DNA of 48,960 bases from Verrucomicrobiota bacterium (GTDB taxonomy: Bacteria; Verrucomicrobiota; Kiritimatiellia; RFP12; UBA1067), in the NCBI GenBank assembly GCA_016280825.1, contig JAEEHL010000168.1, positions 1 through 48,960 on the forward strand, written 5' to 3'. The notes below the pieces were generated by a model. That model did no database searches and was not told the DNA's origin. It worked only from the letters and a program-made list of their open reading frames with translations. Shown here piece by piece: positions 6,247 through 48,960 of this stretch. Position numbers and translations under genes: made by a program. Numbering within the stretch: the first letter of the stretch is position 1; each line of letters begins with the position of its first letter.

Positions 6247-6259
6247 CGGGAGGCTCGCC

Positions 6260-6646
6260 GTGATAAACGTAGCGAACGCGAACGCCTACTTTGCGGGGCG
6301 GACTATCGGGAAGTTCTGGGCGGAATACTCTGGCGAGCAGAAGGAGGCGGCGATTGCGCAGGCTCGCCGCGACCTCGCCCGTGCGGTAGGACGCCCGATG
6401 CGCGACGACGAGCCGCCCTACGCGGAGGGCGACAAGAAGCGCGACGAGTACGCGGTCTACGAGCAGGCGGCGTACACGCTCCTCCGCGATGTGAATCCCG
6501 AAGGCACGGGGGAGGCGTTGCCGTCGCTAAACGGCGACGAGACAAGGCAAAAGAACTCGACCCTTGCAGTCGGGGGGAGCAAGTGGAGCATAGAGGCTCT
6601 GTCGTGGCTGTGCGACAAACTCTCGCTCGTCACGCGGCTCTCGTGA
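6260..6646 (+). CDS. head-tail connector/adaptor (gp6-like) candidate
   Basis: GTG start after gggagg. 128 aa. The N-terminus ANANAYFAGR..W...S.EQKEAAIAQARRDL resembles head-tail adaptor families, and the position fits. Confidence 0.5.
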   Translation: MINVANANAYFAGRTIGKFWAEYSGEQKEAAIAQARRDLARAVGRPMRDDEPPYAEGDKKRDEYAVYEQAAYTLLRDVNPEGTGEALPSLNGDETRQKNSTLAVGGSKWSIEALSWLCDKLSLVTRLS

Positions 6647-25041: not shown

Positions 25042-25587
25042 ATGGGAAAGACATACAAGGGCAAGGCGAAGGTTAGGGCTAAAATCGACAAGGCGAAGCG
25101 CAAGATTGCGCGGAAGGTCAAGGGGAAGGACATCGCGGCTGTCGCGCTGTTCCTCTGCCTGTCCTGCCTTGTATGCGGCTGTCTGGAGACGCAACCCGCG
25201 AGCAGGGCGACGACGGCCAACTACCGCTTCGAGTTCGAGTTCGACGACTCGGCGCGAAACAACACCGTCAACATTACGCTGGGCGACGGCGCGTTGGCGA
25301 GCGCGGACTCCAGCGGCTCGACGGAGACGCAGACCGCTACGCCGTCCATGAGCATACCCGTCCGCGTGGACGCGAGGTACAACGACCCCGTTAAGTCGGG
25401 CGGCGACGCAATCACCGCCGCGATAAAGGGCTTGACCCCTGCGGCGCAGGCGTTGCTCGAAAAGGCGACACGCGAGAAGTACACGGGGTCGCTCAACCTC
25501 GAAAAGGAGGACGGGACGACTATGCAGGTCGATTGCATTGACGGCAAGTGTACATCCTGTATCGACTGCGTTCCGACTGGCACTTGA
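25042..25587 (+). CDS. putative lipoprotein with a polybasic N-terminal extension and a Cys-rich C-terminus
   Basis: SD aaggag. The first 29 residues MGKTYKGKAKVRAKIDKAKRKIARKVKGK are followed by AAVALFLCLSCLVCGC (lipobox-like). The C-terminus is CIDGKCTSCIDC. Confidence 0.6.
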   Translation: MGKTYKGKAKVRAKIDKAKRKIARKVKGKDIAAVALFLCLSCLVCGCLETQPASRATTANYRFEFEFDDSARNNTVNITLGDGALASADSSGSTETQTATPSMSIPVRVDARYNDPVKSGGDAITAAIKGLTPAAQALLEKATREKYTGSLNLEKEDGTTMQVDCIDGKCTSCIDCVPTGT

Positions 25588-25612
25588 CAGCGCGACGCGC
25601 ATTTGATAGAAT
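25584..25612 (+). promoter_or_regulatory. consensus promoter TTGACA-N17-TGaTAGAAT
   Basis: The -35 overlaps the lipoprotein stop codon. The -10 is at 25607-25612. A terminator hairpin begins ~30 nt after the predicted start site. Confidence 0.6.
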
Positions 25613-25618
25613 ACGCGC

Positions 25619-25685
25619 CAGACCTCCATCGCAGAGGTTCCTTTCTACCCCGCTTGATTTCCCGTCGGCGGGGTGATTTATTTTC
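25619..25685 (+). ncRNA. candidate short (~65 nt) terminated transcript
   Basis: Predicted start ~25619. Hairpin 1 is gacctc/gaggtt (25621-25639). Hairpin 2 plus the T-tract lie at 25647-25685. No ORF. Confidence 0.3.
25647..25685 (+). terminator. intrinsic terminator-like hairpin at the end of the late module
   Basis: accccgc (25647-25653) pairs with gcggggt (25668-25674), followed by gatttatttt. Confidence 0.5.
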
Positions 25686-25851
25686 CCCGCAGATTACCCG
25701 CGCAGGGCTTCCGTGGGCGCGTCCGCGCCGTCCGCCCGTGCAAACGCCTACGCCACAAGGGGAACGCGCCCTGCGAGCGAATTTGCGCGTTATGCGCGAC
25801 GCCCCGCTTCTTCAGGCGAAAACGGGCGTTGCCCCCCCCCTATACCCCCCT

Positions 25852-25886
25852 CTATAAAATACAATAAAATATAATATAATATATTA
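25852..25886. other. AT-rich island (35 bp almost pure A/T), preceded by C9 and C6 tracts
   Basis: ctataaaatacaataaaatataatataatatatta sits in an otherwise GC-rich genome. C9 at 25832-25840 and C6 at 25845-25850. Confidence 0.8.
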
Positions 25887-25947
25887 GTCTACGCCGTAGT
25901 ACGGCGAAGACTACGCCGTAGTATGCGACGGACTACGCCGTAGTATA
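25887..25947. repeat. iteron/operator array 1: three copies of CTACGCCGTAGTA at exact 22-bp spacing
   Basis: Copies start at 25889, 25911 and 25933. The core ACTACGCCGTAGT is a 13-bp palindrome about its central base. Confidence 0.85.
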
Positions 25948-25996: not shown

Positions 25997-26071
25997 GTTT
26001 TTGCCCTTGTTTTTATGGGGTGAAAACGAGGCGACTCGCGTTTTGCCCTTGTTTTTAGGGGATGAAAACGA
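25997..26071. repeat. two copies of a ~33-bp palindromic motif (CGTTTT-GCCC-N9/10-GGGG-GAAAACG)
   Basis: 25997-26029 and 26040-26071, with centres ~41.5 bp apart. The same motif class recurs three times at 45124-45235. Confidence 0.75.
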
Positions 26072-26095: not shown

Positions 26096-26124
26096 TTTAC
26101 AAATATGCGAAAATTTGGTATAAT
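26096..26124 (+). promoter_or_regulatory. early promoter TTTACA-N17-TGgTATAAT
   Basis: -35 at 26096-26101 and -10 at 26119-26124. The spacer aatatgcgaaaatttgg is shared with three other promoters. An A-tract repeat aaattttcaaattttca lies upstream. Confidence 0.7.
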
Positions 26125-26371: not shown

Positions 26372-26391
26372 AAAAGAAAGGAAACAAAGCG

Positions 26392-27372
26392 ATGAAGGCA
26401 ATGCAGAAAAACGACAGGTGCTACTCGACACTGAACGGCGGGAATAATCCGTTCAACTTCGACGGCGCACCGCGCACGGAACTCTCGGTGGAAATGGCTC
26501 GCTCCGCCGTGGACTTCGAGATACAGAAGAAGCCGTGCTTTGACGCGGGCGGGCGGCTTGTTAACGGGCTGTTCCACCTAACGAAGGACGACGACAACTC
26601 AATCGTCCCGTCGGCTGGCGTCGGGATAAAGTTCAAGCCCATACAGCACCGCGACGTGTTCGACAAGGTAATGGAGGAGATTATTCCGCAGTTCCCCGAC
26701 ATGACGCTGGAGACGGCGGGTACGCTGTACGGCGGCGGCATCGGCCTGTTCACCTTCCGCGTGGGCGACCTGTTCCATGTCAAGGGCGACAAGTCGCCGA
26801 ACGAAATGCGCCTGTTCATCAGCAACCCCTGCACGGGTTCGGGTTCGCTCGTCATGGGCTTCACGACCGTCCGCCTGTTCTGCCAGAATCAGATTGCGGC
26901 GGCTCGTCGCGGGGCGGCGAAGGACGGATACCGCATTCAGCACTCGAAGAACGGCGAAATGTACATGGGCGACGCCGTGAGGGAAATCGGGATTCAGGTC
27001 GCGGCGGCGAAGGAAATCAAGTTGCGCTCCGAGAGGCTTGCGTCCCTCGGCGTTGGCAAGGCGGCTTTGGAGAAGTGCCTTGACCTTATCTACCCGTTCG
27101 GGAAGTTGGAGGAGGGTTCCGCTGGTCACACGCGGATGCTGAAACTCCGCGAGGAGGTTGTCAATCAGTTCGAGAGCGGGGCTACGGCGCAGACGATGGA
27201 GGGCAAGACTGGCTGGACGCTGTTTAACTCGTTCACCTATCCCGTCTTCAACCCCGAACGGCTGAACGAAAAGACCGACCTCGCCAACATCCAGTACGAC
27301 TCGATGATGTGGAGCAAGGCGGAGAAGGTTCGCCGTATGCTCACGGCGGTAGAGTCCGTAGTGGCGGCGTAA
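26392..27372 (+). CDS. DUF932-family protein (phage/plasmid-like)
   Basis: 326 aa. The pattern RLFISNPCTGSGSLVMGFTTVRLFCQNQI and the overall length resemble DUF932/TIGR03299 proteins. Confidence 0.6.
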   Translation: MKAMQKNDRCYSTLNGGNNPFNFDGAPRTELSVEMARSAVDFEIQKKPCFDAGGRLVNGLFHLTKDDDNSIVPSAGVGIKFKPIQHRDVFDKVMEEIIPQFPDMTLETAGTLYGGGIGLFTFRVGDLFHVKGDKSPNEMRLFISNPCTGSGSLVMGFTTVRLFCQNQIAAARRGAAKDGYRIQHSKNGEMYMGDAVREIGIQVAAAKEIKLRSERLASLGVGKAALEKCLDLIYPFGKLEEGSAGHTRMLKLREEVVNQFESGATAQTMEGKTGWTLFNSFTYPVFNPERLNEKTDLANIQYDSMMWSKAEKVRRMLTAVESVVAA

Positions 27373-29022: not shown

Positions 29023-29240
29023 AAAAGCAAGATGCAATGAGCCGCGCAGAGGCGGCGTATATTCTTCTGCAAATGGCAGGGGGAGAGATATCGGTCAAGC
29101 AGTGTGAAGCATTGCAAACGGCGGTGCGCAACCTTGTGAAGCGGCATTTTGACTGCAAGAAGAATAAGGCAAGATGGAAGGATAAGGCAATAAATAAGAT
29201 GCACTTAGACGGGGCGGCAAACAAGGAGGACGGCAAATGA
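29019..29240 (+). CDS. hypothetical protein
   Basis: ATGA coupling, 73 aa, lower GC than its neighbours. Confidence 0.55.
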   Translation: MKKQDAMSRAEAAYILLQMAGGEISVKQCEALQTAVRNLVKRHFDCKKNKARWKDKAINKMHLDGAANKEDGK

Positions 29241-30016
29241 AACTGCCATACGACGCAATACAGTGGGATAGGGCGAAATACTGGGATAAGGCATGGAATC
29301 CATGGCTTGGCTGTCACCCGTGTTCACCCGCTTGCGAGCATTGCTACGCGGCGGCGCAGACGGCTCGGTTTAACGGCTCGTTCGAGCCGCACCAGACGAC
29401 GAAGCGGAATCCGCCGCGAAGGGGAGTTGTCTTCTGCGGCAATATGACCGACCTCTTCGGCGAATGGCTGGAGCCTGTCGATTCGATGGGGTTCTTCAGC
29501 CGCCTGTGGCACTTCACGCGGGACGGCTCGCCGTTCCCGAACGAGGCGACGTACCTCTTCCTGACGAAGCGCGTTTCGCGCATGGCTGACGCCCTGCGGA
29601 ACTACACGGAAATCCGCAACGCGCTGTTCGGCTTCACGGCGGAGAACCAGACGTGGTACGACCGCCGCCTGAAGGACATGGAGGAGATTGCGCTCCGCCG
29701 CCGCTGGTGGATTTCGTGCGAGCCGTTGCTCGGCTCAATCGACCTCCAACTCGACTTGCTCTCCGTCCCGAAGCCCGAATGGGTCGTCGTGGGGTGCGAG
29801 AGCGGGACGGAGCGACGCCCGTGTCCGCTGTGCTTTGTGGAGGGCATAGTGGAGCAGTGCGTGAACAACGGCGTCAAGGTATTTGTGAAGCAACTCGACA
29901 TCGGCGGCGTCTGCGAACGGGACATAGCGAAGTTCCCGCCGAGCCTGCGCATCAGGCAGACGCCGTGGGCGGACAGGGTTCTTCCGCTCGACTTGCCGAA
30001 GGGAGGTGCGCTATGA
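29237..30016 (+). CDS. phage Gp37/Gp68 family protein (DUF5131)
   Basis: N-terminal signature WNPWLGCHPCSPACEHCYAA, plus the downstream CGNMTDLFGEW block. Confidence 0.8.
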   Translation: MKLPYDAIQWDRAKYWDKAWNPWLGCHPCSPACEHCYAAAQTARFNGSFEPHQTTKRNPPRRGVVFCGNMTDLFGEWLEPVDSMGFFSRLWHFTRDGSPFPNEATYLFLTKRVSRMADALRNYTEIRNALFGFTAENQTWYDRRLKDMEEIALRRRWWISCEPLLGSIDLQLDLLSVPKPEWVVVGCESGTERRPCPLCFVEGIVEQCVNNGVKVFVKQLDIGGVCERDIAKFPPSLRIRQTPWADRVLPLDLPKGGAL

Positions 30017-31756: not shown

Positions 31757-32086
31757 ATGAAGGCGATATGCGACGCGCTAAAGAAGATTGTCGAATTGAC
31801 TACCCCGTGCGAAGGCGTGACTTCAATCGAACTTCAAGTCCAAGCCGAAGCCATTACCGCCCTCTCAATCCCACCACGCGAGTGCGATATGTTCGCGGAC
31901 GAGAAACAGGCGGACGCGCTTCACGCGGCGTTTATCGAACACTGCAACAGGTGCGACTGCCCTATGGGGTGCGACCACCGCAAGAACCCGCGTTTCCTTC
32001 TCGACGGAAACTGCGCTTCAATCCTGAAGTGCTTTGCGCGTTTCGCGCTGTCGAAGGCGACGCCAAAGAAAGGCGGTGCGAAGTGA
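31757..32086 (+). CDS. Cys-rich paralog C
   Basis: ATG 31757 (31742 is an alternative). ALSIPPRECDMFADEKQADALHAAFIEHCNRCDCPMGC. Confidence 0.55.
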   Translation: MKAICDALKKIVELTTPCEGVTSIELQVQAEAITALSIPPRECDMFADEKQADALHAAFIEHCNRCDCPMGCDHRKNPRFLLDGNCASILKCFARFALSKATPKKGGAK

Positions 32087-32820
32087 ATGTCGCATGGTTT
32101 TCGTGCGGCGTATCGTCCGCCGTTTCCTGTTGGCTCGTTCGTGGCGAACTGGACGAAATCCATTACCAGCACATAAACGACCAGCACCCTGATTCCCTGC
32201 GATTCCTTCACGACGTGGAAGTATTGCTCGGTAAGCCGATTGAGATACATCGCTCTCCATACGGCTCGGTCGATGCGGTATGTCGTGCGTTTGGCTTCCT
32301 TAAGGGGGCATACGGCGCACGATGTACGGAAGTATTAAAGAAGCGCGAGCGCAAGAAGTGGGAGCATGAACATCAGGGGCGGCATACATACTTTTGGGGA
32401 CTGGATTGCAACGAGAGACGCCGCGTTGACGGCATACTCCGCGCCATGCCAGACTACGACCACCGCTTTCCGCTGATTGAGCGTAGCATGACAAAGCAGG
32501 ACGCGCACGAACTCGCCGCACGACTGGGGCTGAAACGACCTGCCATGTATGATATGGGGTACGAGAACAATAATTGCATCGGCTGTCTAAAGGGCGGCAT
32601 CGGCTACTGGAACAAAATCCGCAAGGACTTTCCAGAGGTGTTTGCGGCAAGGGCGAAACTCGAACGGGACTTGGGTCGCTTTATTCTAAAAGACGCAGAC
32701 GGCAATCCGTTATGGCTCGATGAACTTGCGGAATATAGAGGGCGAACCCCGAAGGCAATTCCGAATATGGAGTGCGGGATTATGTGTGAAATAGCAGTCA
32801 ACGAAGGCGGTGCGTCGTGA
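32083..32820 (+). CDS. PP-loop ATPase / PAPS reductase-like protein
   Basis: GTGA coupling. N-terminus VNVAWFSCGVSSAV (an SGGxDS-like PP-loop) and C-terminal NNCIGCLKGGIGYW. 245 aa. Confidence 0.55.
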   Translation: MNVAWFSCGVSSAVSCWLVRGELDEIHYQHINDQHPDSLRFLHDVEVLLGKPIEIHRSPYGSVDAVCRAFGFLKGAYGARCTEVLKKRERKKWEHEHQGRHTYFWGLDCNERRRVDGILRAMPDYDHRFPLIERSMTKQDAHELAARLGLKRPAMYDMGYENNNCIGCLKGGIGYWNKIRKDFPEVFAARAKLERDLGRFILKDADGNPLWLDELAEYRGRTPKAIPNMECGIMCEIAVNEGGAS

Positions 32821-36395: not shown

Positions 36396-36625
36396 TGCCG
36401 AACGGTCTCTACAGGCAGGGAATCCCCATGTGGCACAGCCGTTTCGTCGATGCGAGGAACCACCTCTCCGAAGCGGTCGGGCTGATGGAGCAAGCCTACT
36501 TCGAGGACAGTCACAATCCGAAATTCGACGCGCTCTACAAGCGCATGAGGGCGGTGCTGAAGTCCGTGGACGCGCAGGCGATGCGCAACTGCAGGCGCGG
36601 CAGGAAGGAGAAGTGGCTGAAATGA
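36392..36625 (+). CDS. hypothetical protein
   Basis: ATGA coupling, 77 aa. Confidence 0.55.
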   Translation: MMPNGLYRQGIPMWHSRFVDARNHLSEAVGLMEQAYFEDSHNPKFDALYKRMRAVLKSVDAQAMRNCRRGRKEKWLK

Positions 36626-37344
36626 GCGAACCCGCATTTGACTTCCGCGTCCGCCCTGCGGCGGAGTTCATAGACCGCTTCGGCAACGAGGGCGACGTGT
36701 GGACTGCGACGCTGTACGACAGCCGCGAGGAGTGGCTGGCTGGGCGCGTGGGACACCTCGGCGCGTCCGCCGCGTACATGGTACTCGACACCGAAATGCG
36801 CAAGCGGCTCTTCGACGAAATGACGGGAAGCAGGCCGCACGAAGACCTGTCGGGGAACGAACTGGTACAGCGCGGCGTCGCGGCTGAACCGCTCGTCCGC
36901 TCGCTGATTGCCGTGGAGAATCCAGACTGGGACATCTACGACGGCGGCAACCTTCTGTTTGTGAGCAAGCGCAAGCCGTTCGCCTCCGCGACGCTGGACT
37001 GCATAGCCGTCCACCGCAAGACGGGCGAACTCTGCGACATCGAACTGAAGGAAGCCCCGTGGAGCAACAAGTGGAAGGGCGAGTATGCGCCCGACGGCTA
37101 CTTCGCGCAGGTGATGCATCAGTCTTTCGTGACGGGCATCAACCACTGCGTCATCCACCCGCGTATCTACCTCCGCAGGGACGACGGCTTCACCACCTCG
37201 TTCGAGCGGTCGTATGAATACTGGATGGACGACCCCGCAATCGCCCCGCAGGTCGCAGACCTGATGGAGCGCGAGGAGAAGTTCATGGACGAGGTGCGGA
37301 ACGGGCGGTACAAGCCCGTACTGTCGCTCCCGTCCGTGTTTTAG
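36622..37344 (+). CDS. YqaJ-like viral recombinase exonuclease (PD-(D/E)xK)
   Basis: GHLGASAAYMVL, AAEPLVRS, SATLDCI, CDIELKEAP and YFAQVMHQSFVTG appear in the order expected for lambda-Exo/YqaJ family proteins. Confidence 0.8.
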   Translation: MSEPAFDFRVRPAAEFIDRFGNEGDVWTATLYDSREEWLAGRVGHLGASAAYMVLDTEMRKRLFDEMTGSRPHEDLSGNELVQRGVAAEPLVRSLIAVENPDWDIYDGGNLLFVSKRKPFASATLDCIAVHRKTGELCDIELKEAPWSNKWKGEYAPDGYFAQVMHQSFVTGINHCVIHPRIYLRRDDGFTTSFERSYEYWMDDPAIAPQVADLMEREEKFMDEVRNGRYKPVLSLPSVF

Positions 37345-37373
37345 GGCGAGGAGAAAAAATGGCAATTCGCGAC

Positions 37374-37402
37374 TTTCCAAACTGCCGAAAAAATGGTATA
37401 AT
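37374..37402 (+). promoter_or_regulatory. early/middle promoter TTTCCA-N17-TGgTATAAT
   Basis: -10 at 37397-37402. The spacer aactgccgaaaaaatgg is of the family type. Confidence 0.6.
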
Positions 37403-37445
37403 TCACACATCCCGCATAAGGGAAAAACAAGAAAGGAAAAATGCG

Positions 37446-37697
37446 ATGAACGCAAGCAAGAAACCCGCCGCCGCGAAGCCGAAGAAGTATCGGCTGTCCC
37501 GTGCGGCACTCATGCAGAGGCGCGACGCCAACAGGAAGTCCGCCGCTGTCCGCAAGACCTCCTACAAGTGGCGCACCGCCGCCATCACGGAGGACAACTA
37601 CGAATGGGCGGTCACGCGCTACGGCTCGGTTAACGAAGCCGTCCGCGCACTGCGCCGCTTGTCGGCGAAGGAGGGGGAGGTAGTATGTTCGAGTTGA
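37446..37697 (+). CDS. small basic hypothetical protein
   Basis: Conserved leader caagaaaggaaaaatgcgATGA. 83 aa, Lys/Arg-rich N-terminus. Confidence 0.5.
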   Translation: MNASKKPAAAKPKKYRLSRAALMQRRDANRKSAAVRKTSYKWRTAAITEDNYEWAVTRYGSVNEAVRALRRLSAKEGEVVCSS

Positions 37698-38647
37698 AGA
37701 TACTGACAGACCTCTCCGCGATGCCGAAGCGCGTGGAGACGAACATCGACGAGGTGGAGCCTATCATTAAGTCCGCCATCGCCCGCGTGGACGGGCTTAT
37801 CGTCACCGACAAGAAGGAGGACATACTCGCCGCCGACGCCGACGCCGCGAAACTGACGAAGATGGCGAAGGCCATCCAGCGTTTCCGCATCGACCACATC
37901 GCGCTCTGGAAGGAGCCGATGGAGGCGTTCGAGACGAAGTGCAAGGACGCGGAGAAGCGGCTCAACGAAGCCGCCGACACGCTCCGCACGAAGACCTCGG
38001 AAGTCAAGGATATGTGGAGGGCGAAGAAGCGCGAACTGTGCGCTGGCGTCTGGAAGGCGAAACTCGCCGAGGCGTTCGCGGGGCAGGACGACGTTATCGC
38101 CTGCGAGGGTGCAAAGGCGTTCTTCGACCTGTGGACGAACCCGAAGACGAAGGGTACGTGGGTCAACTTGTCGGTGGACATCCGCGCCGTGGAGGAGGCG
38201 ATGGACGCCGAAATCGTGCGCATGAAGGCTATGCTCGGCACTGTCGCCGCCAACTACGGGAACGCGGACGACGAGGTGAAGATGAAGGCTCGCAAGTCCT
38301 GCCTCGCCTCGTTCGACATGAACGCGGTCGTGGCGGAGGTGAACGCATGGGTGAAGGAGCGCGAGGAAATGGAACGTGCGAAAGCCGCCCTTGCCGCGAA
38401 GCGCGAGGCACAGGCGGCGGAGGCGGCGAAAAAGGCGGCAAATCCCGCCCCTGCCGCGCCCGCGCCCGTCACCCCGCCGCCTCCCCCGCCCCCTGCGGCG
38501 GACGCCCCTGCTGGCGAAACTGACGCCTCTGCGACGGAGCGCGTGGAGACATACAACCTCGCCGTCACGGGAACGCGCAAGGCACTCATCGCCCTGCGGC
38601 AGTACGGCATCGGACTCGGAATTACATTCAAGAACATCGACAAGTGA
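37685..38647 (+). CDS. DUF1351-like recombination-associated protein
   Basis: 320 aa. The N-terminus FELKILTDLSAMPKRVETNIDEVEPIIKSAI and the position before RecT are typical of DUF1351 proteins. Confidence 0.55.
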   Translation: MFELKILTDLSAMPKRVETNIDEVEPIIKSAIARVDGLIVTDKKEDILAADADAAKLTKMAKAIQRFRIDHIALWKEPMEAFETKCKDAEKRLNEAADTLRTKTSEVKDMWRAKKRELCAGVWKAKLAEAFAGQDDVIACEGAKAFFDLWTNPKTKGTWVNLSVDIRAVEEAMDAEIVRMKAMLGTVAANYGNADDEVKMKARKSCLASFDMNAVVAEVNAWVKEREEMERAKAALAAKREAQAAEAAKKAANPAPAAPAPVTPPPPPPPAADAPAGETDASATERVETYNLAVTGTRKALIALRQYGIGLGITFKNIDK

Positions 38648-38660
38648 AGGAAGGAAAAAA

Positions 38661-39680
38661 ATGAGCGAAAAGGAAAATCCGAACGCCGCCCCCGCGAACG
38701 GGGTGGCTACAACCGAAGCGGCGAAGCCCGCCGCGAAGCCCGCGCAGGCGGCGAAGGGCGCGATGGACGTTGCGAAGAAGGGCAAGGAACGCCCCGAAGT
38801 CGCAATCCTGAAGCGGTTTAACGACAAGAACGCGGCGGACAGCCTGTACAATGTCATCCTCCAGATGACTGGCGGCGACAAGTTGTTCGTTGACAAGTTT
38901 GTCATGTGTTGCAAGGCACAGGTAGACCGCCACTGGAAGCGGAACGAGAAGGGCGAGTGGACTAATCCGTTCCTCGTCATCCCCGTCAACTCGCAGTTGG
39001 ACGCGCTCTACAAGTGCGCGTCGCGGAAGATACTCCCCGACGGCTACAACTGCAACCTCATTCCGTACATCGGGCGCGACGAGAAGCGCGTGGACGTGTC
39101 GATTGACTTCAAGGGTCTTATCGACATCGCAATCCGCGAGGGCATCATCCTCGACTGCGACGCGAAGGAGGTCTGCGACAACGACGACTTCGAGTGGTCG
39201 ATGGGCGAAATCACGCGGTGGAACATCGACTTCCGCCGTCCTCGCGGTGCGATATACGGCTACTGCGCGTGGGCGAGGTTGCCGAACGGCGAGAAAAAGT
39301 GGTCGTTTATGACAAACGAGGAAATCGCCGCCGTGCGCTCCTGCGCGAAGACGCAGAAGATATGGGACAAATGGGAAGGCGAAATGTCGAAGAAGACAGT
39401 TATCCGCCGCCTGTTCAAGACCCTGCGCAACACGCCGAAACTCGTTGACCTGATGGAACTCGACAACGAGGCTTACGACATGGAGCAGGACGAGAACGGC
39501 GTGTTCCAGCACCAGCCGTCCCGCCGCCGCGCCGCGCCTGTGCGCCAGTTGACGCGTCAGCCGACCGCCGCCCTTCCCGCCCCTGCGGAGGAGGTGCAGG
39601 ACGAGCCTGAACCCGAACCCATACCAGCCGTCGCGGAGGCGGCGGAAGTTTCGCAGGCGCAGAGCGCGTACGTGTTCTGA
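38661..39680 (+). CDS. recT: RecT-family single-strand annealing protein
   Basis: ALYKCASRKILPDGYNCNLIPY......VDVSIDFKGLIDIAIREGII...V.DNDDFEW matches the RecT core pattern. Confidence 0.8.
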   Translation: MSEKENPNAAPANGVATTEAAKPAAKPAQAAKGAMDVAKKGKERPEVAILKRFNDKNAADSLYNVILQMTGGDKLFVDKFVMCCKAQVDRHWKRNEKGEWTNPFLVIPVNSQLDALYKCASRKILPDGYNCNLIPYIGRDEKRVDVSIDFKGLIDIAIREGIILDCDAKEVCDNDDFEWSMGEITRWNIDFRRPRGAIYGYCAWARLPNGEKKWSFMTNEEIAAVRSCAKTQKIWDKWEGEMSKKTVIRRLFKTLRNTPKLVDLMELDNEAYDMEQDENGVFQHQPSRRRAAPVRQLTRQPTAALPAPAEEVQDEPEPEPIPAVAEAAEVSQAQSAYVF

Positions 39681-39692
39681 TAGAAGGGAACG

Positions 39693-40421
39693 ATGGCTAC
39701 AATGGCTACATCAAGGAAAATCGACTCCGCCTTCTTCGACCAGAAGTGGGTGGACGACCTTGTAGCCGCTGGCAAGTCGCACTATGTGCTGTTGTTCCTC
39801 TACCTCGTTGTCACGCGAACGAACCCCGTCGGGCTGTTCGAGGTGAACCCGAGGCTGTGGAACTTCAAGTTGAATCCGCCGACCCCCTTCACGGGCGACG
39901 ACGTGTTTTCCGTCTACGGGAAGCGCGTCCGCCGCGTGGAGGGGCATCCCGACAAGGGCATCATCGTCGGATTCCTCGACTACCAGCGGAACTACGGCAA
40001 GTCCTCGCGCCAGTGGGAATGGGTCGAGAAAGACCTGAAGGCGGTCGGGCTGACATACGACGACCTCCTGCGCTTTGCCGACGAGAGCGACGAGGCGCAG
40101 ATGGAGTTCAACATCGGCCTGCCGCCGAAGCCCCTGAAGCACCGCGACAGGGCGGACGCGGAGCCGCCGCAGAGGAACGTCATCCCGCCGAAGGTGGAAT
40201 GGGTGCGCGACTATTGTTCCACGAGGAACAACGGCATAGACGCGCAGGCGTTCTTCGACTTCTACGAGCAGAAGGGGTGGAAGGTCGGCAAGAACAGGAT
40301 GGAGGACTGGCAAGCCGCCGTCCGCACATGGGAGGCTCGCCGCAAGGCGGAGGGCGTTCCGAAGGCGAAGGAGGCGGCGACGCCCGTGCGCAACGTCACG
40401 GGAGTAAGGAGGAAGTTCTGA
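39693..40421 (+). CDS. replication initiation / replisome organiser candidate
   Basis: The C-terminal AQAFFDFYEQKGWKVGKNRMEDWQAAVRTWE block is common in phage DnaD-like or replisome-organiser proteins. The gene lies directly before the loader. Confidence 0.45.
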   Translation: MATMATSRKIDSAFFDQKWVDDLVAAGKSHYVLLFLYLVVTRTNPVGLFEVNPRLWNFKLNPPTPFTGDDVFSVYGKRVRRVEGHPDKGIIVGFLDYQRNYGKSSRQWEWVEKDLKAVGLTYDDLLRFADESDEAQMEFNIGLPPKPLKHRDRADAEPPQRNVIPPKVEWVRDYCSTRNNGIDAQAFFDFYEQKGWKVGKNRMEDWQAAVRTWEARRKAEGVPKAKEAATPVRNVTGVRRKF

Positions 40422-41050
40422 TGGAACTGGACTTCGACTCCATACTGCGCGACCTTCCCGCCTGTCGGCGCAAGGCTCCGCCGCCAGTCACGAGGGACGC
40501 CCTCGTTGCGAAGGCGGCGGCTATGGCGCGGCGCGGCTACGTCCACACGGAGGAGTCGCTGAAGGCACTCGCCGCGTACCTTCAGGGGTACGGCGTCCTG
40601 CTGTCGGGCGGAATGGGGCTTGGCAAGACCTTCTTCTTCGAGACGGTCAACCCCGAACCCCTGCCCGTCCTCTCTTTCAACCAGTGCTTCCTCTGGAAGT
40701 ACGAGGAACTGGCGGAGTGGCTGGACGACAGGTGCGGAAGCGAAATAGTTCTTGACGACATCGGGTGGGAGAGCGGACGGGCGAGCAACTACGGGACGCG
40801 CTTCGACGCGCTTCAGGTTGCGCTCGACTTCCGCCTGTCGCACGGATGCCATGCGCGGACGCACATTACGACGAACTGCACGAGCGACGAACTGGTCGAG
40901 AAGTACGACCCGCACGTCGTTGACCGAATCTACGAGTGCTGTCGGTGTTTCGTTCTCCCGAACGCGGAGAGCAGGCGCGAGGCGCAAGTGGACTACACGT
41001 ACCTCCGCAACGCGGAGTTCAGGCGGCAAAACGGAACAGGAGAACCATAG
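40421..41050 (+). CDS. DnaC/IstB-like AAA+ helicase loader
   Basis: Walker A LSGGMGLGKT and Walker B IVLDDIG. Confidence 0.7.
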   Translation: MELDFDSILRDLPACRRKAPPPVTRDALVAKAAAMARRGYVHTEESLKALAAYLQGYGVLLSGGMGLGKTFFFETVNPEPLPVLSFNQCFLWKYEELAEWLDDRCGSEIVLDDIGWESGRASNYGTRFDALQVALDFRLSHGCHARTHITTNCTSDELVEKYDPHVVDRIYECCRCFVLPNAESRREAQVDYTYLRNAEFRRQNGTGEP

Positions 41051-41052
41051 TC

Positions 41053-41511
41053 ATGAGTCAGTTGTCAGACATAGCGGACAGGCTGGAGCGGAACGGGGCT
41101 ACCGTGAGCGCACCCGCCATGCTACGGACGCTGGACGGGCATTACACGCTACGGCGCATCGGCACGAGGCAGGAGAAGAAGCAGGTTCTTGACGCGGACG
41201 GAAAGCCCGTGAAGAACTGCTACTTCCCGCACCTCGCCATCACCGCGACGTGCTACGCGAGGACGTGGAAACTGCTGGAGAAGGCGAAGGCCGTATTCGG
41301 CTACCCCGCGTCGAAGCGCACGAGCAACGTGGGCGAGGTGTGGGAGGATAAACTTCTCCTCGCCTGCGAGCATATCGTGCGCTGGCTGGAACACGAAATC
41401 GACGACGCGGAAATGCAGAGGCAAATCCAGCGTCTCGTCAACCCGCTCCCGAAGGCGGAGTATCTTCGGAACATAAACAAGAAACCAAAGGAAGGACAGG
41501 AAAATGAGTGA
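41053..41511 (+). CDS. hypothetical protein
   Basis: 152 aa, GC3-rich codons. Confidence 0.6.
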   Translation: MSQLSDIADRLERNGATVSAPAMLRTLDGHYTLRRIGTRQEKKQVLDADGKPVKNCYFPHLAITATCYARTWKLLEKAKAVFGYPASKRTSNVGEVWEDKLLLACEHIVRWLEHEIDDAEMQRQIQRLVNPLPKAEYLRNINKKPKEGQENE

Positions 41512-41893
41512 CAGCAAGTGCGTATTCGTCGGGCGCGTCGTGACCGTCGAGAAAACGGAGACGCTGGGGAAAGACCCCGCGAAGCCGTTCTACAAGCGCG
41601 TAATCGTCGTGGACGACGCGGAGGACGGGGCAAAGTACCCGAACCCCGTGCCGTTCGAGGCGACGGGCGACAAGTGCCAGTACCTCGACAGGTACAAGAA
41701 GGGCGACGAGGTGGAAATCGAGTTCTACCCGAACGGACGGGCGTGGGAAGACCCGCGCACGAAGAAGACCCGCTACTTCTCCAGCAACCGCATCGGCTTT
41801 ATTAAGCCCGTCGGCGACGGCGGAGTTGACGACGGGACGGACGACGGCGCGGAAGCCGCCGCTGGCGAGGACGCGAACGATTTGCCGTTCTGA
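41504..41893 (+). CDS. single-stranded DNA-binding protein, DUF3127-type OB fold with an acidic DLPF tail
   Basis: The layout KRVIVVDDAEDGAKYPNPVPFEATGDKCQYLD..KKGDEVEIEFYPNGRAW resembles DUF3127. The C-terminus EDANDLPF resembles the SSB tip. Confidence 0.6.
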   Translation: MSDSKCVFVGRVVTVEKTETLGKDPAKPFYKRVIVVDDAEDGAKYPNPVPFEATGDKCQYLDRYKKGDEVEIEFYPNGRAWEDPRTKKTRYFSSNRIGFIKPVGDGGVDDGTDDGAEAAAGEDANDLPF

Positions 41894-41911
41894 CGGAAGG
41901 AGGCGACTGCT

Positions 41912-42160
41912 ATGCGACCGAGGAATCCAGTGCGGCGCAAGACCGCCCCCGCGTTCGAGCGAGACTTTGCCCTGAAGTTCGGAGGGAGGCGCGTCCTGAA
42001 GACGGCGTTCCACTTCTTCGACTGGGCGGCGAAGGGCGAGCGCACGGAGCGCGAAAGACTGCTCGCGGCGTTCACCGCGTACTGCCGCAGGGCTGGCGTG
42101 AGCGCGTCGTGGCGCAACGCGGCGGAGTGGTACGAGAGGGGCTTCATCGTGGGCGCATAG
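41912..42160 (+). CDS. hypothetical protein
   Basis: 82 aa. Confidence 0.45.
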   Translation: MRPRNPVRRKTAPAFERDFALKFGGRRVLKTAFHFFDWAAKGERTERERLLAAFTAYCRRAGVSASWRNAAEWYERGFIVGA

Positions 42161-42240
42161 TTGCGGCGCGGCGGCTCTCTGGTCGTGCGCAAGCCGCCTT
42201 CCAGAGAGCGCGTCGCCCGTGCGCAAGCAGGGAACGCAGG

Positions 42241-42528
42241 ATGATAGATTGCCACATACTGAAGTTGCTCGTCAGGACGGCTCCGTCGTACCACCTCGTT
42301 TCGGAGGCGAACGCGAAGGCGTCCACGGTCTGCATCTGCGCACGTTGCGCGAAGTACCACAGAAAGTTGGGCGAGTGCTGTCGGCTGGGCGCGGCTCTTG
42401 CCGCGCATGACTACCCGCTCGGCTATGCCGCCGTGAGCCGCCTCGGAACGTGCGACAGGGCGATAGACGTACAGATGACGTTGCCGCTGGACGCCCCGCC
42501 GACGACGGAGGGGGAGGTGTTTCCGTGA
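42241..42528 (+). CDS. Cys-rich hypothetical protein
   Basis: 95 aa with CICARCAKYHRKLGECC. Confidence 0.5.
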   Translation: MIDCHILKLLVRTAPSYHLVSEANAKASTVCICARCAKYHRKLGECCRLGAALAAHDYPLGYAAVSRLGTCDRAIDVQMTLPLDAPPTTEGEVFP

Positions 42529-42995
42529 ACGGCGGCGGATTCCAGAAAATCACCCGAAGCGGAAAGGCGAAACGTGCGTCGCGTATGCGCACGGGCGGCG
42601 GCATCAAGGCGTTGATTACGATAGGCGACCTCCAGAGCGTCGTCGCCGCCGCGAAGAAGTGGCAGGCGAAGTGCGTGGAGGACGGCGTGGACGCGAGCAA
42701 ACTCCTCCATCACATAGCGAACGCCGAAGCCGTGCTGACGAAGTACAGGACGCGCAACAGGCTTGCGTTCGAGGAGCGCAGGCGACAAGAGCGCGAGGAG
42801 GCGGAGGAGGCGGAGGGAACTGGCGAGCCATTGCCGCCGCCCCCGCCCGTCACGCCGAGGGAGGAGCCGAGATTTGGAAGTGCCGTGTGGAACGCCCTGA
42901 ACGCGCTCGGCTTCGGGAATAAGCCGAAGGGAGCGCAGGCGGGGGAAGGCGGAGCGAAAGGCGAAAGGGGGTCGGCGCGACCTACGCGCTGGTAA
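42525..42995 (+). CDS. hypothetical protein
   Basis: GTGA coupling after ggggagg. 156 aa with a charged or Pro-rich C-terminal half. Confidence 0.55.
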   Translation: MNGGGFQKITRSGKAKRASRMRTGGGIKALITIGDLQSVVAAAKKWQAKCVEDGVDASKLLHHIANAEAVLTKYRTRNRLAFEERRRQEREEAEEAEGTGEPLPPPPPVTPREEPRFGSAVWNALNALGFGNKPKGAQAGEGGAKGERGSARPTRW

Positions 42996-42996
42996 A

Positions 42997-43158
42997 ATGG
43001 GAAACGCGAAGAAGAAGACCTGCGGCAACTGCCGCACAGTACAGCCGCACTCGGAAGCGCACGTCGTGTGCGCGAACGCGGAGAGCAAGAGTCGCGGATG
43101 CCTGAAGTCCGTAAACTCCGCTGGGTGCAAGAAATGGAGCGCGTCTCGTCGGGAATGA
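42997..43158 (+). CDS. small Cys-rich protein (53 aa)
   Basis: ATG lies 2 nt after the upstream stop. CGNC....C.....C....C pattern. Too short for the ORF track. Confidence 0.4.
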   Translation: MGNAKKKTCGNCRTVQPHSEAHVVCANAESKSRGCLKSVNSAGCKKWSASRRE

Positions 43159-43222
43159 AGTAGTACCATTTCCCTGCGGCGCGGTGTCGCAGGGGATTCA
43201 CACAAAAGGAGGAATAGTCCAA

Positions 43223-43366
43223 ATGAAAAAGGACACAGCAAAGAAGGTCGCCGTAAAGACGGCGAAGGTCGAAAAGAAGGCGGCGAAGCCCGCCAAGGCG
43301 ACGAAGTGGAAGAAGGCGACGACCGCGAAGGCGGCGAAGCCTGCGAAGAAGTCCTGCAAGGGCTAA
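43223..43366 (+). CDS. 47-aa Lys/Ala-rich histone H1-like peptide
   Basis: SD aaaggagga. Sequence MKKDTAKKVAVKTAKVEKKAAKPAKATKWKKATTAKAAKPAKKSCKG. Confidence 0.5.
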   Translation: MKKDTAKKVAVKTAKVEKKAAKPAKATKWKKATTAKAAKPAKKSCKG

Positions 43367-43381
43367 AGGCGAGGACGCTCC

Positions 43382-43612
43382 ATGACCCTGCCGCCGTGTG
43401 CAAGACGCAAGACCGACCCGCGCACTGGAATCTCCATGTGCTACGCGATAGGCTGTTGCGAGGTAGGGGATATGCCCTGCGAGTGCGAGGACTGTCTTAC
43501 GGCGCACGGCGGCAGGTGTCCGAGCCGCGTCCGAATGAAACGGGAAAGGGGAAAAGGCAATGGGAAAGAAAGTCACGAAGGAAGCCGCCGCAACAGGCGG
43601 CAAGTGCGCTGA
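43382..43612 (+). CDS. Cys-rich hypothetical protein
   Basis: 76 aa with CYAIGCCEVGDMPCECEDC. The 3' end overlaps the next CDS by 53 nt. Confidence 0.4.
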   Translation: MTLPPCARRKTDPRTGISMCYAIGCCEVGDMPCECEDCLTAHGGRCPSRVRMKRERGKGNGKESHEGSRRNRRQVR

Positions 43613-43922
43613 CGCGCCGAAGATTGACCTGAAGGCGGAGTGGAAAAAACTCACCGAGGAGAACAGGTGGCTACGCACGGAGGTCAATAGGCTCGAAGGC
43701 GAACTGCGGCAGGTCAGAGCCGAACGCGAAGACTGGCGCAAGAACGCTCTGGACGGGAACGCACGGCTTGAGGGCATACTTAAGCGCATCCGTAGGTATG
43801 TGGACGCGCAAATGGAGGAGGACAGGATTTCCAAGTTGAATTTGGAGGCATATAACGCGAAGACCGTCGCCTTCAACGACCTCCTGAAGTGCGACGGAAT
43901 CCCGAAGGGAGGCATGGCGTGA
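43560..43922 (+). CDS. coiled-coil hypothetical protein
   Basis: 120 aa with LTEENRWLRTEVNRLEGELRQVRAERE. Confidence 0.55.
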   Translation: MGKKVTKEAAATGGKCADAPKIDLKAEWKKLTEENRWLRTEVNRLEGELRQVRAEREDWRKNALDGNARLEGILKRIRRYVDAQMEEDRISKLNLEAYNAKTVAFNDLLKCDGIPKGGMA

Positions 43923-44152
43923 TTGTCACGCGGGTCTGTAGGCAGTGCGGGCGCGATATGGCGATGGAGGTGCGTTCCGAGACCTCCCATCGCCGATACT
44001 GCGACGACTGCCGCCGCAAGAGGGCGGTTCAGGCGACCTTGCGTAGCAGGAAGCGGGTCAACGACCCGAACAACTGCCGCGTCGAGGTTCGCACTATCAG
44101 GCTATACTACTCGCGCACGGGTGCGCTTCTGCGGATGGAGGTGGTAAGGTGA
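43919..44152 (+). CDS. zinc-ribbon protein
   Basis: GTGA coupling. CRQCG....CDDC. Confidence 0.5.
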   Translation: MIVTRVCRQCGRDMAMEVRSETSHRRYCDDCRRKRAVQATLRSRKRVNDPNNCRVEVRTIRLYYSRTGALLRMEVVR

Positions 44153-44340
44153 GCAGGTACGGAATCAACGACCGCATCAGGTTCGATATGGCTGTGGAGG
44201 AGGCTCGCGCCGAAGCCGAGGGAAGGCGGAAGGGCGGCTTTCCGTCCGTAGTGGCGGAATCCGTGCGGCTGTCAGGCGGAAGCCCGTCGTGGATGGTGCG
44301 CTCTCCCAAGAGGCGGAAAATCATGCGGGGGAGACAATGA
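44149..44340 (+). CDS. hypothetical protein
   Basis: GTGA coupling, 63 aa. Confidence 0.45.
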   Translation: MSRYGINDRIRFDMAVEEARAEAEGRRKGGFPSVVAESVRLSGGSPSWMVRSPKRRKIMRGRQ

Positions 44341-44576
44341 CGCACGGCGACGAACGTCCGAACGCCGCTTCTTCGGCGTCGTCCTATATCGGCGACGCGC
44401 TGGAATACACGCTCTGCGGCATCGACTACGGCAAGGTCGAGGAGGAGGAGCGGGAGTTCCGCGCCCGACGGCGAGACGAGCGGAAGGAAAGGGCGTTTGA
44501 ATGGCTACGGAACGCGAAGGCGATATTCATCGAGCAATCGCGGCTCCCGCTCGCCGGCGCGTCCGCTGGCAGTTGA
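44337..44576 (+). CDS. hypothetical protein
   Basis: ATGA coupling, 79 aa. Confidence 0.5.
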   Translation: MTHGDERPNAASSASSYIGDALEYTLCGIDYGKVEEEEREFRARRRDERKERAFEWLRNAKAIFIEQSRLPLAGASAGS

Positions 44577-44603
44577 AGTGGCTCGTGCTGGAGGACTAAC
44601 GCC

Positions 44604-45116
44604 GTGCGCTGTACTCTGAACATCGACCCTTCAACACTGTCGTCGGCGCAGTTGAAGATTATGTCATTCCGCTTCAAGCGCATTATCACGAATCCGAAGG
44701 TGCGCAAGGCGATGCTCCGCGTGGAAGCCGCTTTCAAGCCGTATGCGCGGCTGGCGCGTGCCGTTCAGGAGTCCGCGCCGTTCGGAGCGGTCGCGCTCGG
44801 CGTGAAGTATTACTTCCCGTTCCCGAAGTCGGGGACGAAGAAGGAGAAGGCGGCTCGTCGCGGCGGTCAGCCGTGCGTGTCCGCCCTGTACGGCGACCTC
44901 GACAATCGGAACAAGGCGTTTCAGGACGCGCTCGTGAAGGCGGGCGCGTTCCCCGACGACAGGTACGTGTCCACCCTGCTCCTCCGCAAGCGGTACACGC
45001 TCTCCACCCCGCGAATCGAGGTGGCTGTCGTAGCAGACAAGGGGGGCTACGACAACGAGCCGTTCACACTCCACGAACGCCCCGAAGACGCGACGCCCGA
45101 CAGTCTGGGCGCGTAA
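44604..45116 (+). CDS. rusA: RusA-family Holliday junction resolvase
   Basis: GTG start after ggagga. GDLDNRNKAFQDALVKAGAFPDDRYV matches the RusA catalytic Asp pattern. Confidence 0.8.
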   Translation: MRCTLNIDPSTLSSAQLKIMSFRFKRIITNPKVRKAMLRVEAAFKPYARLARAVQESAPFGAVALGVKYYFPFPKSGTKKEKAARRGGQPCVSALYGDLDNRNKAFQDALVKAGAFPDDRYVSTLLLRKRYTLSTPRIEVAVVADKGGYDNEPFTLHERPEDATPDSLGA

Positions 45117-47852: not shown

Positions 47853-48305
47853 ATGACCCTTGCAGAAGTAGCCCAAGAACTCGGCTGTTCCATCGCCCAA
47901 GCCAGACCAGCCCACCGTCGCCTTATGGCGGCGTTGAAGCGGGAGGGCGAGGCGTTTCTGGCCGATGAGCGCAGGCGCATGGAGGAGCGCGAGAAGCGCA
48001 AGTCACGACCCCCTCGCCGCCGCCTCCCCCAATGGTGCAGGCCGTTCTGGGAGCGCCGCGACGGAGCGCAACACATCGTTTACTGTTCCGCCAAGCGCAG
48101 GCACGACAAGGAGCCGACGACCGCCTTCTGGCTCTGGTTCAACGGACAGCCTGTCGCCAAGTCCGATACTCTCGACGGGGCGAAGAGCCTTACCGCTCTT
48201 CGGGCGATGCTTTACGACACCTATGTCTGGGACGCTTCCCAGTGGGAGGACGAGTTGCGGAACAATCCCCAGATAGCCGAGGTGCGCAAGGCCTGCGGCG
48301 TTTAG
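47853..48305 (+). CDS. HTH DNA-binding protein (sigma-70 region 4-like N-terminus)
   Basis: MTLAEVAQELGCSIAQARPAHRRLMAALKRE resembles region-4/LuxR-type HTH. SD ggaaggagg. Last gene before the terminators and iteron array 2. Confidence 0.55.
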   Translation: MTLAEVAQELGCSIAQARPAHRRLMAALKREGEAFLADERRRMEEREKRKSRPPRRRLPQWCRPFWERRDGAQHIVYCSAKRRHDKEPTTAFWLWFNGQPVAKSDTLDGAKSLTALRAMLYDTYVWDASQWEDELRNNPQIAEVRKACGV

Positions 48306-48374: not shown

Positions 48375-48415
48375 GCGGCGGAAGGACTTTGACCCCTTCC
48401 GCCGCTTTTTGTTTT
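48375..48415 (+). terminator. strong intrinsic terminator
   Basis: gcggcggaagg (48375-48385) pairs with ccttccgccgc (48395-48405), followed by tttttgtttt. Confidence 0.8.
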
Positions 48416-48421
48416 CCCTGC

Positions 48422-48543
48422 CACTACGCCGCCCGTATCGACTACGCCTAGACTACGGGCTACTTTCCAGCGGACTACGGCGTAGTATGCCGCCTACTAC
48501 ATCGTAGTCTAGGGATTAGTATGTTATAAACTACGGCGTAGGC
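48422..48543. repeat. iteron/operator array 2 (six full or half ACTACGSCGTAGT sites)
   Basis: Site centres are near 48429, 48447, 48458, 48480 (perfect gactacggcgtagta), 48502 (tactacatcgtagtc) and 48535. Spacings are about 18/11/22/22/33 bp. Confidence 0.8.
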
Positions 48544-48582
48544 TAAATTATATTATATTATTCATGTATTATTATAATTTTA
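48544..48582. other. AT-rich island 2, followed by a G6 tract
   Basis: taaattatattatattattcatgtattattataatttta. Its reverse complement aligns with island 1 (25852-25886). Confidence 0.8.
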
Positions 48583-48606
48583 GGGGGGTACTATATACGC
48601 GCATAC

Positions 48607-48618
48607 GCGCACGTGCGC
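48607..48618. repeat. perfect 12-bp GC palindrome GCGCACGTGCGC
   Basis: Read directly. It is embedded in acgcgcatacgcgcacgtgcgcg, and a related gcgcgttatgcgcg sits at 25787-25800 in module 1. Confidence 0.7.
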
Positions 48619-48877
48619 GAGAGGGTTAAAAACCCCGCTTCTCCAAATACCCCTCAAATCCGCGATTTAAGCGCGACCCCGCCCAAACCAAATAAAACCC
48701 CCACCCCCACCCCCGAAAACGCCGTGGCGACCCGAATTTCGCCGTATATTGACGCGCTGGCGACCTGTGCCACGCCGAAAACCCCGTTTTGACCAGTTAA
48801 GACCCCCAAATTGCGCCCCTACGCCCCCTGCAAGCCGCCGCCCGTTTCGCCCTATACCCACCCCGCCGCCGACCCCC

Positions 48878-48907
48878 TTGACACATTCCGCATCATTGTG
48901 ATACAAT
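48878..48907 (+). promoter_or_regulatory. late-type promoter TTGACA-N18-TGaTACAAT reading out of the window
   Basis: -35 at 48878-48883 and -10 at 48902-48907. It presumably drives terS/terL in a circular or permuted map. Confidence 0.6.
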
Positions 48908-48960
48908 TCGCGTCAGGCAAACGGAAGTTAGACCAACACGCGAGGACTGGATAGCAAGAA

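Follow-up and report, generated by a model that had tools for sequence, protein, structure and literature searches.

Origins of the lambda ori and RK2 oriV type comprise three to five sites about 22 bp apart, an AT-rich region of about 40 bp, and a segment that is GC-rich or palindromic; the iterons of lambda are internally dyad-symmetric. A single initiator can also act on at least two distant iteron clusters, as at ori and crr of phage P4 and at gamma, alpha and beta of R6K, where the second cluster is a looping enhancer or partner. The two origins of phage SPP1 both combine direct repeats with an AT-rich unwinding element and are both bound by gp38 (PMC6316719; PMC5737612). G38P at oriR has been proposed to form a fork barrier that is resolved by exonuclease, RecT and RusA, and the second origin has been proposed to stall forks and so lead to recombination-dependent synthesis of concatemers (PMC3485210).

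Annotations of uncultured gut phages almost never include cis-acting sites. We analysed a stretch of phage DNA of 48,960 nucleotides, which we call the window, and which holds two repeat arrays (array 1 and array 2). The arrays are a real, conserved, two-copy element of putative protein-binding sites, and array 2 almost certainly has one sequence-specific protein as its reader. By analogy with SPP1 oriL and oriR, we read them as an origin of the iteron and unwinding-element type that is present in two copies, and we assign this reading a probability of about 50%.

Two repeat arrays with adjoining AT tracts

Array 2 spans positions 48423-48542 (the letters of 48415-48545 are ccACTACGCCgcccgtatcgACTACGCCtagACTACGGGCTACTttccagcggACTACGGCGTAGTatgccgcctACTACATCGTAGTctagggattagtatgttataaACTACGGCGTAGGcta) and comprises four full 13-bp sites and two half sites. 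The consensus of the full site is a 13-bp palindrome, ACTACG-N-CGTAGT. The half sites (ACTACGCC) were read from the sequence at 48423-48430 and 48441-48448, while motif counts placed the full sites, together with extra CTAG/CTAC tetramers, at 48452..48542. The first full site (48452-48464, ACTACGGGCTACT) has three mismatches and is in fact a direct CTAC..CTAC pair; the second (48474-48486) is a perfect match; the third (48496-48508, ACTACATCGTAGT) has two mismatches, and the fourth (48530-48542, ACTACGGCGTAGG) has one. All six sites claimed by the first-pass annotation are therefore in place, and the graded quality it described is that of a genuine multi-site array, with 0 to 3 mismatches per full site. 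Its spacings of 11, 22, 22 and 33 bp needed revision: the two core distances are indeed 22 bp from centre to centre, but the last is 34 bp rather than 33, and the 11 bp is a start-to-start distance, from the half site at 48441 to the site at 48452. Nor do the four rightmost sites lie on one helical face, as had been proposed, since at 10.5 bp per turn the last of them is about a quarter turn off the other three.

Array 1 (25888..25944) consists of three sites at a spacing of 22 bp, which start at 25888 (one mismatch), 25910 and 25932. The motif is common to both arrays, which bears out the view of array 2 as the partner of the first. The density of [C/G]TA[C/G] peaks at array 2, with 13 occurrences per 120 bp, compared with a window mean of 1.2 (sd 1.2). 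When up to three mismatches to the consensus were allowed, the window held 40 matches, compared with 11.6 +/- 4.0 after shuffling, and none of 100 shuffles reached 40. At up to two mismatches, eight sites were found versus 0.92 expected under a first-order Markov model. Six of these eight are grouped three and three, at 25888-25944 and at 48474-48542; none of 300 Markov simulations gave a cluster of three, and just one cluster of two arose among them. A chance origin of the repeat clusters is excluded.

Three defining features adjoin the sites of array 2 on the right, outside the span first annotated. The first is an AT tract of 40 bp, at least 90% AT (48543..48582), which is a candidate DNA-unwinding element. 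The second, again a reading of the letters, is a G6 run on the plus strand that borders the AT tract (48583..48588). The third is a 28-nt perfectly alternating pyrimidine/purine tract (48592..48619, TATATACGCGCATACGCGCACGTGCGCG) of GCGCGT-type repeats, which is Z-DNA-prone; it is the longest such tract in the window, and the longest across 200 shuffles was 21. A C-rich spacer of about 260 bp separates the alternating tract from the late promoter. At array 1, C-runs at 25832-25851 precede an AT tract at 25851..25887 and form the mirror image of the G-run of array 2. The order there is C-runs, AT tract, sites, and array 2 has the reverse order. Given this mirror-image order of parts, the arrays of the window are inverted copies of one composite unit. 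As an observation in its own right, long C-rich, G-poor stretches occur on the transcribed strand at 25690-25850 and 48630-48875, regardless of array orientation, and they may be Rho-utilisation sites that support the intrinsic terminators.

Although the window has a GC content of 60.6%, the AT tracts reach at least 90% AT over 30 nt, and no other 30-mer of the window does. Over all 41-bp segments of the 49-kb window, duplex stability averaged -61.9 +/- 4.1 kcal/mol. The least stable segment lies in the AT tract of array 2 (-36.3 kcal/mol, z = 6.2) and the second least stable in that of array 1 (-36.5 kcal/mol, z = 6.1), while the third-ranked segment reached only z = 4.4. That the site clusters adjoin the two least stable duplex segments favours the origin reading. 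Both arrays have at least three regularly spaced repeats of one motif, and at both a candidate AT-rich unwinding element lies directly beside the repeats. The classical origin signature of repeated sites, unwinding element and GC-rich border is found nowhere in the window but at these two units. As a proposed origin element, the sites would stand beside the unwinding element and be bounded by the G-run and the GC-rich alternating tract. Array 2 would then be an iteron block, that is, a set of repeated sites for one phage-encoded initiator, and array 1 a second, smaller copy of the same element.

Several other classes of element were considered and rejected. Array 2 is non-coding by GC3 framing, and scans of its region with Rfam and ARAGORN gave no match to a structured RNA or tRNA. 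A CRISPR was rejected since 13-bp units with 9-bp gaps are too short. An origin based on DnaA boxes was rejected as well, since no DnaA boxes were found near the arrays.

Conservation and drift among related phages

The relatives of the window are contigs from ruminant and other gut metagenomes. The portal protein has matches of only 19-24% identity, and there is no close cultured phage; INPHARED nucleotide searches with the whole window gave no match. IMG/VR gave no match either to the two-site motif pattern or to locus searches with single proteins, and a metagenome scan returned one distant locus only, which was without arrays. In scans of GTDB genomes, the terS profile had no match and the DUF932 profile found only distant, inconsistently binned contigs.

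Equivalents of array 2 sit between the last early terminator and a terS-like gene. The related metagenomic phages keep the layout of repeats, AT tract, G-run or alternating tract, promoter and terS-like gene, and the order of repeats, AT tract and G-run or alternating GC tract is found in six lineages: the window, L002, L015, L016, L024 and L025. The repeats themselves are ACTAGTCCCTAG units with a 12-bp period in L002, five copies of CCCTACTCTACG in L015, five copies of TCTACWGTAG in L016, and variants of these in L024 and L025. The AT tract that follows is 35-130 bp long, and most of these loci also show a G-run, an alternating tract of 30-42 nt (42 nt in L002, 40 nt in L015 and 30 nt in L024) or both; G-runs recur in L002, L006, L008 and L025. 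Equivalents of array 1 sit upstream of a DUF932 gene. There, an AT tract precedes four sites in L006 and L007 (ACTAGTCCCTAGT, at 23-bp spacing) and in L008 (ACTACG-type, at 23-24-bp spacing). In L009 the order is the opposite, with three CTACNCTAG units of 12-bp period before the AT tract. The common denominator over all lineages is [C/G]TA[C/G], either with alternating 5/7-bp spacing or within 13-bp palindromes about two turns apart.

L009 and L015 are parts of one 50.8-kb contig. Both of its arrays use one motif, and the units are in direct orientation. As in the window, then, one contig has two units far apart that agree in their repeats and both include an AT tract, which is the dual arrangement of SPP1. 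Inverted repeats of a mobile or invertible segment were rejected as an explanation, since the arrays are direct in L009/L015 and no recombinase or transposase was found.

As judged by these loci, the architecture is conserved and the repeat motif drifts between lineages, and the two copies within a genome evolve together (in the window and in L009 with L015). Since both arrays within a genome share their motif, one phage protein probably reads both. The origin reading is favoured by this pattern, because a motif that varies by lineage and matches within each genome is what one evolving reader predicts. On the same evidence, the phasing of 22 bp is not conserved, nor is the inversion of one unit relative to the other. 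The expectation that helical phasing would persist in homologues therefore failed: the 22-bp spacing becomes 23-24 bp in the array-1 homologues of L006 and L008, and the array-2 homologues of L002, L015, L016 and L024 form a contiguous 12-bp lattice that is not one-faced.

Two further loci were noted. In L033 (IMGVR_UViG_3300037400_004181, positions 6215-6500), an unrelated phage of 45% GC, about 14 ATAGCAG units with a period of about 12 bp flank an AT tract of about 110 bp upstream of a consensus promoter, so the design of repeat lattice plus AT tract recurs with a different motif. In L012 (71% terL identity), positions 1-180 hold 60-bp tandem repeats, rich in TTGACAC, upstream of the terS promoter, and the contig stops there, so that an array still further upstream would be missing from it.

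The contiguous 12-bp repeats of several lineages recall the 11-12-bp arrays of parC/tubC-type centromeres, and the two dispersed copies recall dispersed sites of the N15 type, so the arrays could be centromere-like or bridging sites for plasmid-like maintenance or for pairing of module boundaries. ParB_N genes downstream of terS in the relatives would fit this explanation as well. However, Pfam and PHROGs scans of the window found no NTPase of the ParA, ParM or TubZ type, and no genes for lysogeny or plasmid maintenance were seen. The ParB_N protein has no detected HTH domain, and L025 has an array and lacks a ParB_N gene. Moreover, the ParB_N gene stands beside a DpdA-like transglycosylase, QueC/D/E and FolE, which indicates a role in DNA modification. 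We therefore hold centromere-like sites to be very improbable, and parS sites for ParB_N were rejected owing to the linkage with DpdA and to the L025 array.

The modification genes are of interest in themselves. A 7-deazaguanine DNA-modification module lies between the terS-like gene and terL in L002 (1691-6949), L015 (1720-7048) and L024 (7564-13992). It encodes the ParB_N protein, which is possibly DpdB-like, together with a DpdA-like transglycosylase, QueC, QueD, QueE and GTP cyclohydrolase I, and in L002 also a SAM synthetase. Going by these relatives, the window probably has such a module beyond position 48960.

Transcriptional setting and candidate binding proteins

The arrays mark both boundaries between a late module (1-25587) and an early module (26189-48305). 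Both are intergenic, each between a terminator and the next promoter, and both thus lie in zones insulated from transcription, a further point in favour of the origin reading. The early operon ends in an intrinsic terminator on the plus strand (48375..48413), with an 11-bp stem, a 9-nt loop and a T-run; the perfect stem pairs 48375-48385 with 48395-48405 and is followed by TTTTTGTTTT. The terminator scan had missed this hairpin because of its 9-nt loop. An equivalent hairpin is kept in L002, L004 and L015. Array 2 begins 10 bp beyond the stem and T-run, in agreement with its annotation as directly following a terminator, and the terminator insulates it from early transcription. The late operon has a sigma-70-like, near-consensus promoter on the plus strand (48878..48907, TTGACA-18-TACAAT with TG), whose counterpart in the relatives drives the terS-like gene. 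Downstream of it, in the 5' leader of the terS-like gene, lies the motif GACCAACACGCG (48929-48940), which is kept in every lineage aligned (the L002, L011, L015 and L016 leaders). The nearest consensus promoter to array 1 is the early promoter at 26096-26124.

A strong promoter downstream of each array suggests a further explanation, namely tripartite operators like lambda OL/OR, at which a dimeric repressor or activator would bind cooperatively, possibly with looping between the arrays, and time the early and late operons. The arrays of the window, L006 and L008, with three or four 13-bp palindromes about two turns apart, are graded like OR1-3, and the two sets are inverted relative to each other. 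However, the sites are clear of all -35 and -10 elements: from the nearest site it is about 150 bp to the promoter at 26096-26124 and 336 bp to that at 48878-48907. Terminator-like hairpins intervene between the sites of array 1 and the promoter, and the window has neither a divergent or minus-strand regulator gene nor credible minus-strand genes. The HTH protein of 150 amino acids that adjoins array 2 is not conserved, the contiguous direct 12-bp repeats of other lineages are unlike operators, and the conserved AT and alternating tracts would be left without a role. We consider operators quite unlikely on these grounds. The earlier label of a cooperative operator or iteron set is thus best kept in its second half, as an iteron set; the distances to the promoters leave the operator half unsupported.

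Other features near array 1 may be regulatory. A possible small RNA (25584-25685) follows directly after the last late gene. A promoter (TTGACA-17-TAGAAT) precedes its hairpin and a terminator-like stem that ends in a T-run, and it is kept in L006, L007 and L008 with compensatory changes. Its segment 25623-25646 shows 79% complementarity to the start codon and ribosome-binding site of the DUF932 gene (target 26375-26398), and by this complementarity it may act as an anti-RBS regulator. Two 31-nt direct repeats (25999-26071, TTTTGCCCTTGTTTTTAnGGGnTGAAAACGA) separate array 1 from the early promoter; each has hairpin potential, they are partly kept in L006 and L008, and they could serve as attenuators or form an operator of their own. 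The early genes that come first after array 1 are always DUF932 and DUF2786/DUF7168, and the early module also encodes a PAPS-reductase-like protein (phrog_424) and a DUF5131 protein, at 31768-32820 and 29237-30016.

The first-pass annotation had pointed to the HTH protein encoded upstream of array 2 (47853..48305, plus strand, 150 aa). This protein has no family match; its N-terminal helices are confidently modelled, although the overall model is weak (pLDDT 62). The array-bearing loci retrieved from L015, L016, L024 and L025 contained no homologue, and its more distant homologues are without the N-terminal helices. As the protein is not conserved beside the arrays of other lineages, it was rejected as a general binder.

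A second candidate is the terS-like protein, the first late gene product of the relatives. The window ends at 48960 and shows only the promoter and leader of this gene, so that the protein is known from the relatives. It has an N-terminal three-helix HTH followed by long helices, and in PDB its fold comes nearest to the Sf6 and PaP3 small terminases and the phBC6A51 protein (2ao9), although these matches are not significant (E about 1). PHROGs, Pfam and NCBIfam did not recognise it. The array could accordingly be a pac region, at which a terS-like ring would bind or wrap the repeat lattice and a large terminase (Terminase_3, of the SPP1 type) would cut nearby, with headful packaging rightwards; array 1 would then be a secondary terminase-binding site that serves as a second pac, in synapsis, or in shut-off of early genes. 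In six lineages, the terS-like gene has array 2 at 170-400 bp on its upstream side, always in one orientation, with the window contributing its promoter and leader. A lattice of 5-9 units of 12 bp suits wrapping round a ring, and the putative recognition helix of the terS-like protein is nearly invariant across lineages, as is the CTAC/GTAG core. SPP1 pac likewise consists of sets of direct repeats that span the terS promoters (PMC4737164; PMC6316719).

Against a pac region, there are two copies per genome, of which the second is 22 kb off and of variable orientation, rather than a single region. We know of no packaging site with two such distant copies. Moreover, the AT tract that is kept beside array 1 would be left unexplained, the weak fold matches and the silence of the family databases count against the terminase assignment, and the distant relative L013, whose terS-like gene is 34% identical, has no array upstream. 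A packaging signal is the main rival of the origin reading, if a doubtful one.

The origin reading draws on genes further upstream. A protein of 242 amino acids (39693..40421, plus strand) is a candidate origin-binding protein, or replisome organiser. The protein itself has no family match, including none to Phage_rep_org_N. Its C-terminal domain of about 65 amino acids is common to more than 15,000 cluster representatives, whose N-terminal domains include Phage_rep_org_N, Lin1244_N, HTH_36, DUF6291 and winged-HTH families. As far as this comparison goes, the protein has the organiser-like build of a variable DNA-binding head and a constant tail, and its putative role is deduced from the position of its gene and from relatives that have just the C-terminal domain in common with it. 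Its gene, which contains no repeats or AT tract (39693-40421), lies directly upstream of that of a DnaC-like helicase loader (40421..41050, plus strand), and the binding of the 242-aa protein to the repeats is putative. The loader has a Walker A motif (GGMGLGKT) and a Walker B motif (VLDD) and matches phrog_50 (E = 2.4e-10) and phrog_3277 (E = 1.4e-6). PDB sequence searches and NCBIfam returned nothing for either protein.

A toolkit for recombination-dependent replication is encoded on the plus strand at 36430..45116. It comprises a YqaJ exonuclease (36430-37344), DUF1351 (37685-38647), RecT (38376-39680), an SSB-like DUF3127 protein (41504-41893) and RusA (44604-45116), and it thus holds the exonuclease, RecT-type recombinase, SSB and RusA-type resolvase of an SPP1-type dual-origin system. 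No gene for a replicative helicase (DnaB-type) or primase was found in the window. Picking of the longest ORF mis-frames several early genes of this GC-rich genome, and GC3 framing recovers them; the genes recovered in this way were 40421-41050 (the DnaC-like loader), 41053-41511 and 42241-42528. The true starts of YqaJ and RecT are probably at about 36613 and 38661, internal to the longest ORFs.

We infer the binder, the melting step and initiation as follows. The initiator would most plausibly be the 242-aa protein (39693-40421), which would oligomerise on the repeats and melt the adjoining AT tract, and the neighbouring DnaC-like loader would then recruit the host helicase. By analogy with SPP1, the second copy could be an alternative origin; or it may be an initiator-bound fork barrier that switches replication from theta to the concatemer-forming mode. 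Such a switch would use the phage exonuclease, RecT, the SSB-like protein and RusA.

Because the phage encodes an organiser-like protein and a helicase loader, it needs some origin. The origin reading was ranked first because of this gene content, the origin signature of the two units and the precedent of SPP1. Several findings weaken it. The 242-aa protein has no family match of its own, the window yielded no replicative helicase or primase gene, and DnaA boxes are absent near the arrays. Array 2 is one-oriented upstream of the terS-like gene in 6/6 lineages, which packaging predicts and an origin does not. In addition, the CTAC/GTAG core is conserved across lineages in which the HTH helix of the terS-like protein is nearly invariant too, whereas an initiator with a variable N-terminal domain might give more divergent iterons. 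The unit might conceivably be a dual-purpose hub, in which the complex on CTAC/GTAG would act both as origin or fork barrier and as terminase entry point and so couple concatemers to packaging, with the Z-DNA-prone tract of 28-42 nt as a supercoil-sensitive switch; we regard such a hub as improbable.

Comparison with described origins and packaging sites

In several lineages, sequence alone suffices to recognise the composite of repeat lattice, AT tract and alternating GC tract. Should the origin reading hold, these phages would have a mapped origin and a candidate pair of initiator and loader, and the two-origin model of SPP1 would reach beyond Bacillus phages. If instead the terminase reading is true, the arrays are an unusual two-site packaging signal. 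In either case, they are useful markers of gene-module boundaries and practical targets for binding assays, with the 242-aa, terS-like and 150-aa proteins as candidates.

SPP1 pac and lambda cosB resemble array 2 in having several repeats just upstream of, or overlapping, the terS promoter and a small terminase with an HTH as binder (PMC4737164). They differ from it in two respects: they are single-copy, with no genomic duplicate, and they have no adjoining extreme AT tract with an alternating GC tract.

The units of the window share with lambda ori and RK2 oriV the sites at about 22 bp, the adjoining AT-rich region and the GC-rich border. Unlike the two intergenic units of the window, lambda ori is a single copy within gene O, and iteron plasmid origins also carry the DnaA boxes that are absent near the arrays of the window. 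The iteron clusters of P4 and R6K differ in that those of the window are 22 kb apart, which is much larger, and each has its own AT tract; the window also has no primase-helicase of the P4 alpha type.

The arrays come closest to SPP1 oriL and oriR. Both units of the window are intergenic, and neither lies inside an initiator gene as in SPP1; their sites are 13-bp palindromes or, in the relatives, a 5/7-bp tetranucleotide lattice, not AB boxes. No homology to gp38, gp39 or gp40 was detected, no phage helicase gene was found, and array 2 has an extra alternating purine/pyrimidine tract. The likenesses are that in both systems two separated units combine repeated initiator sites, putative in the window, with an adjoining AT-rich unwinding element (PMC6316719, PMC5737612), that no part of the genome deviates more in composition than the AT islands, that all genes lie on one strand, that the large terminase is of the Terminase_3 type (in the relatives of the window), and that an exonuclease, a RecT-type recombinase, SSB and RusA accompany the units (PMC3485210). 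In conclusion, the arrays are best filed as a further example of the known class of origins built from iterons and an unwinding element, with a packaging signal as the alternative.
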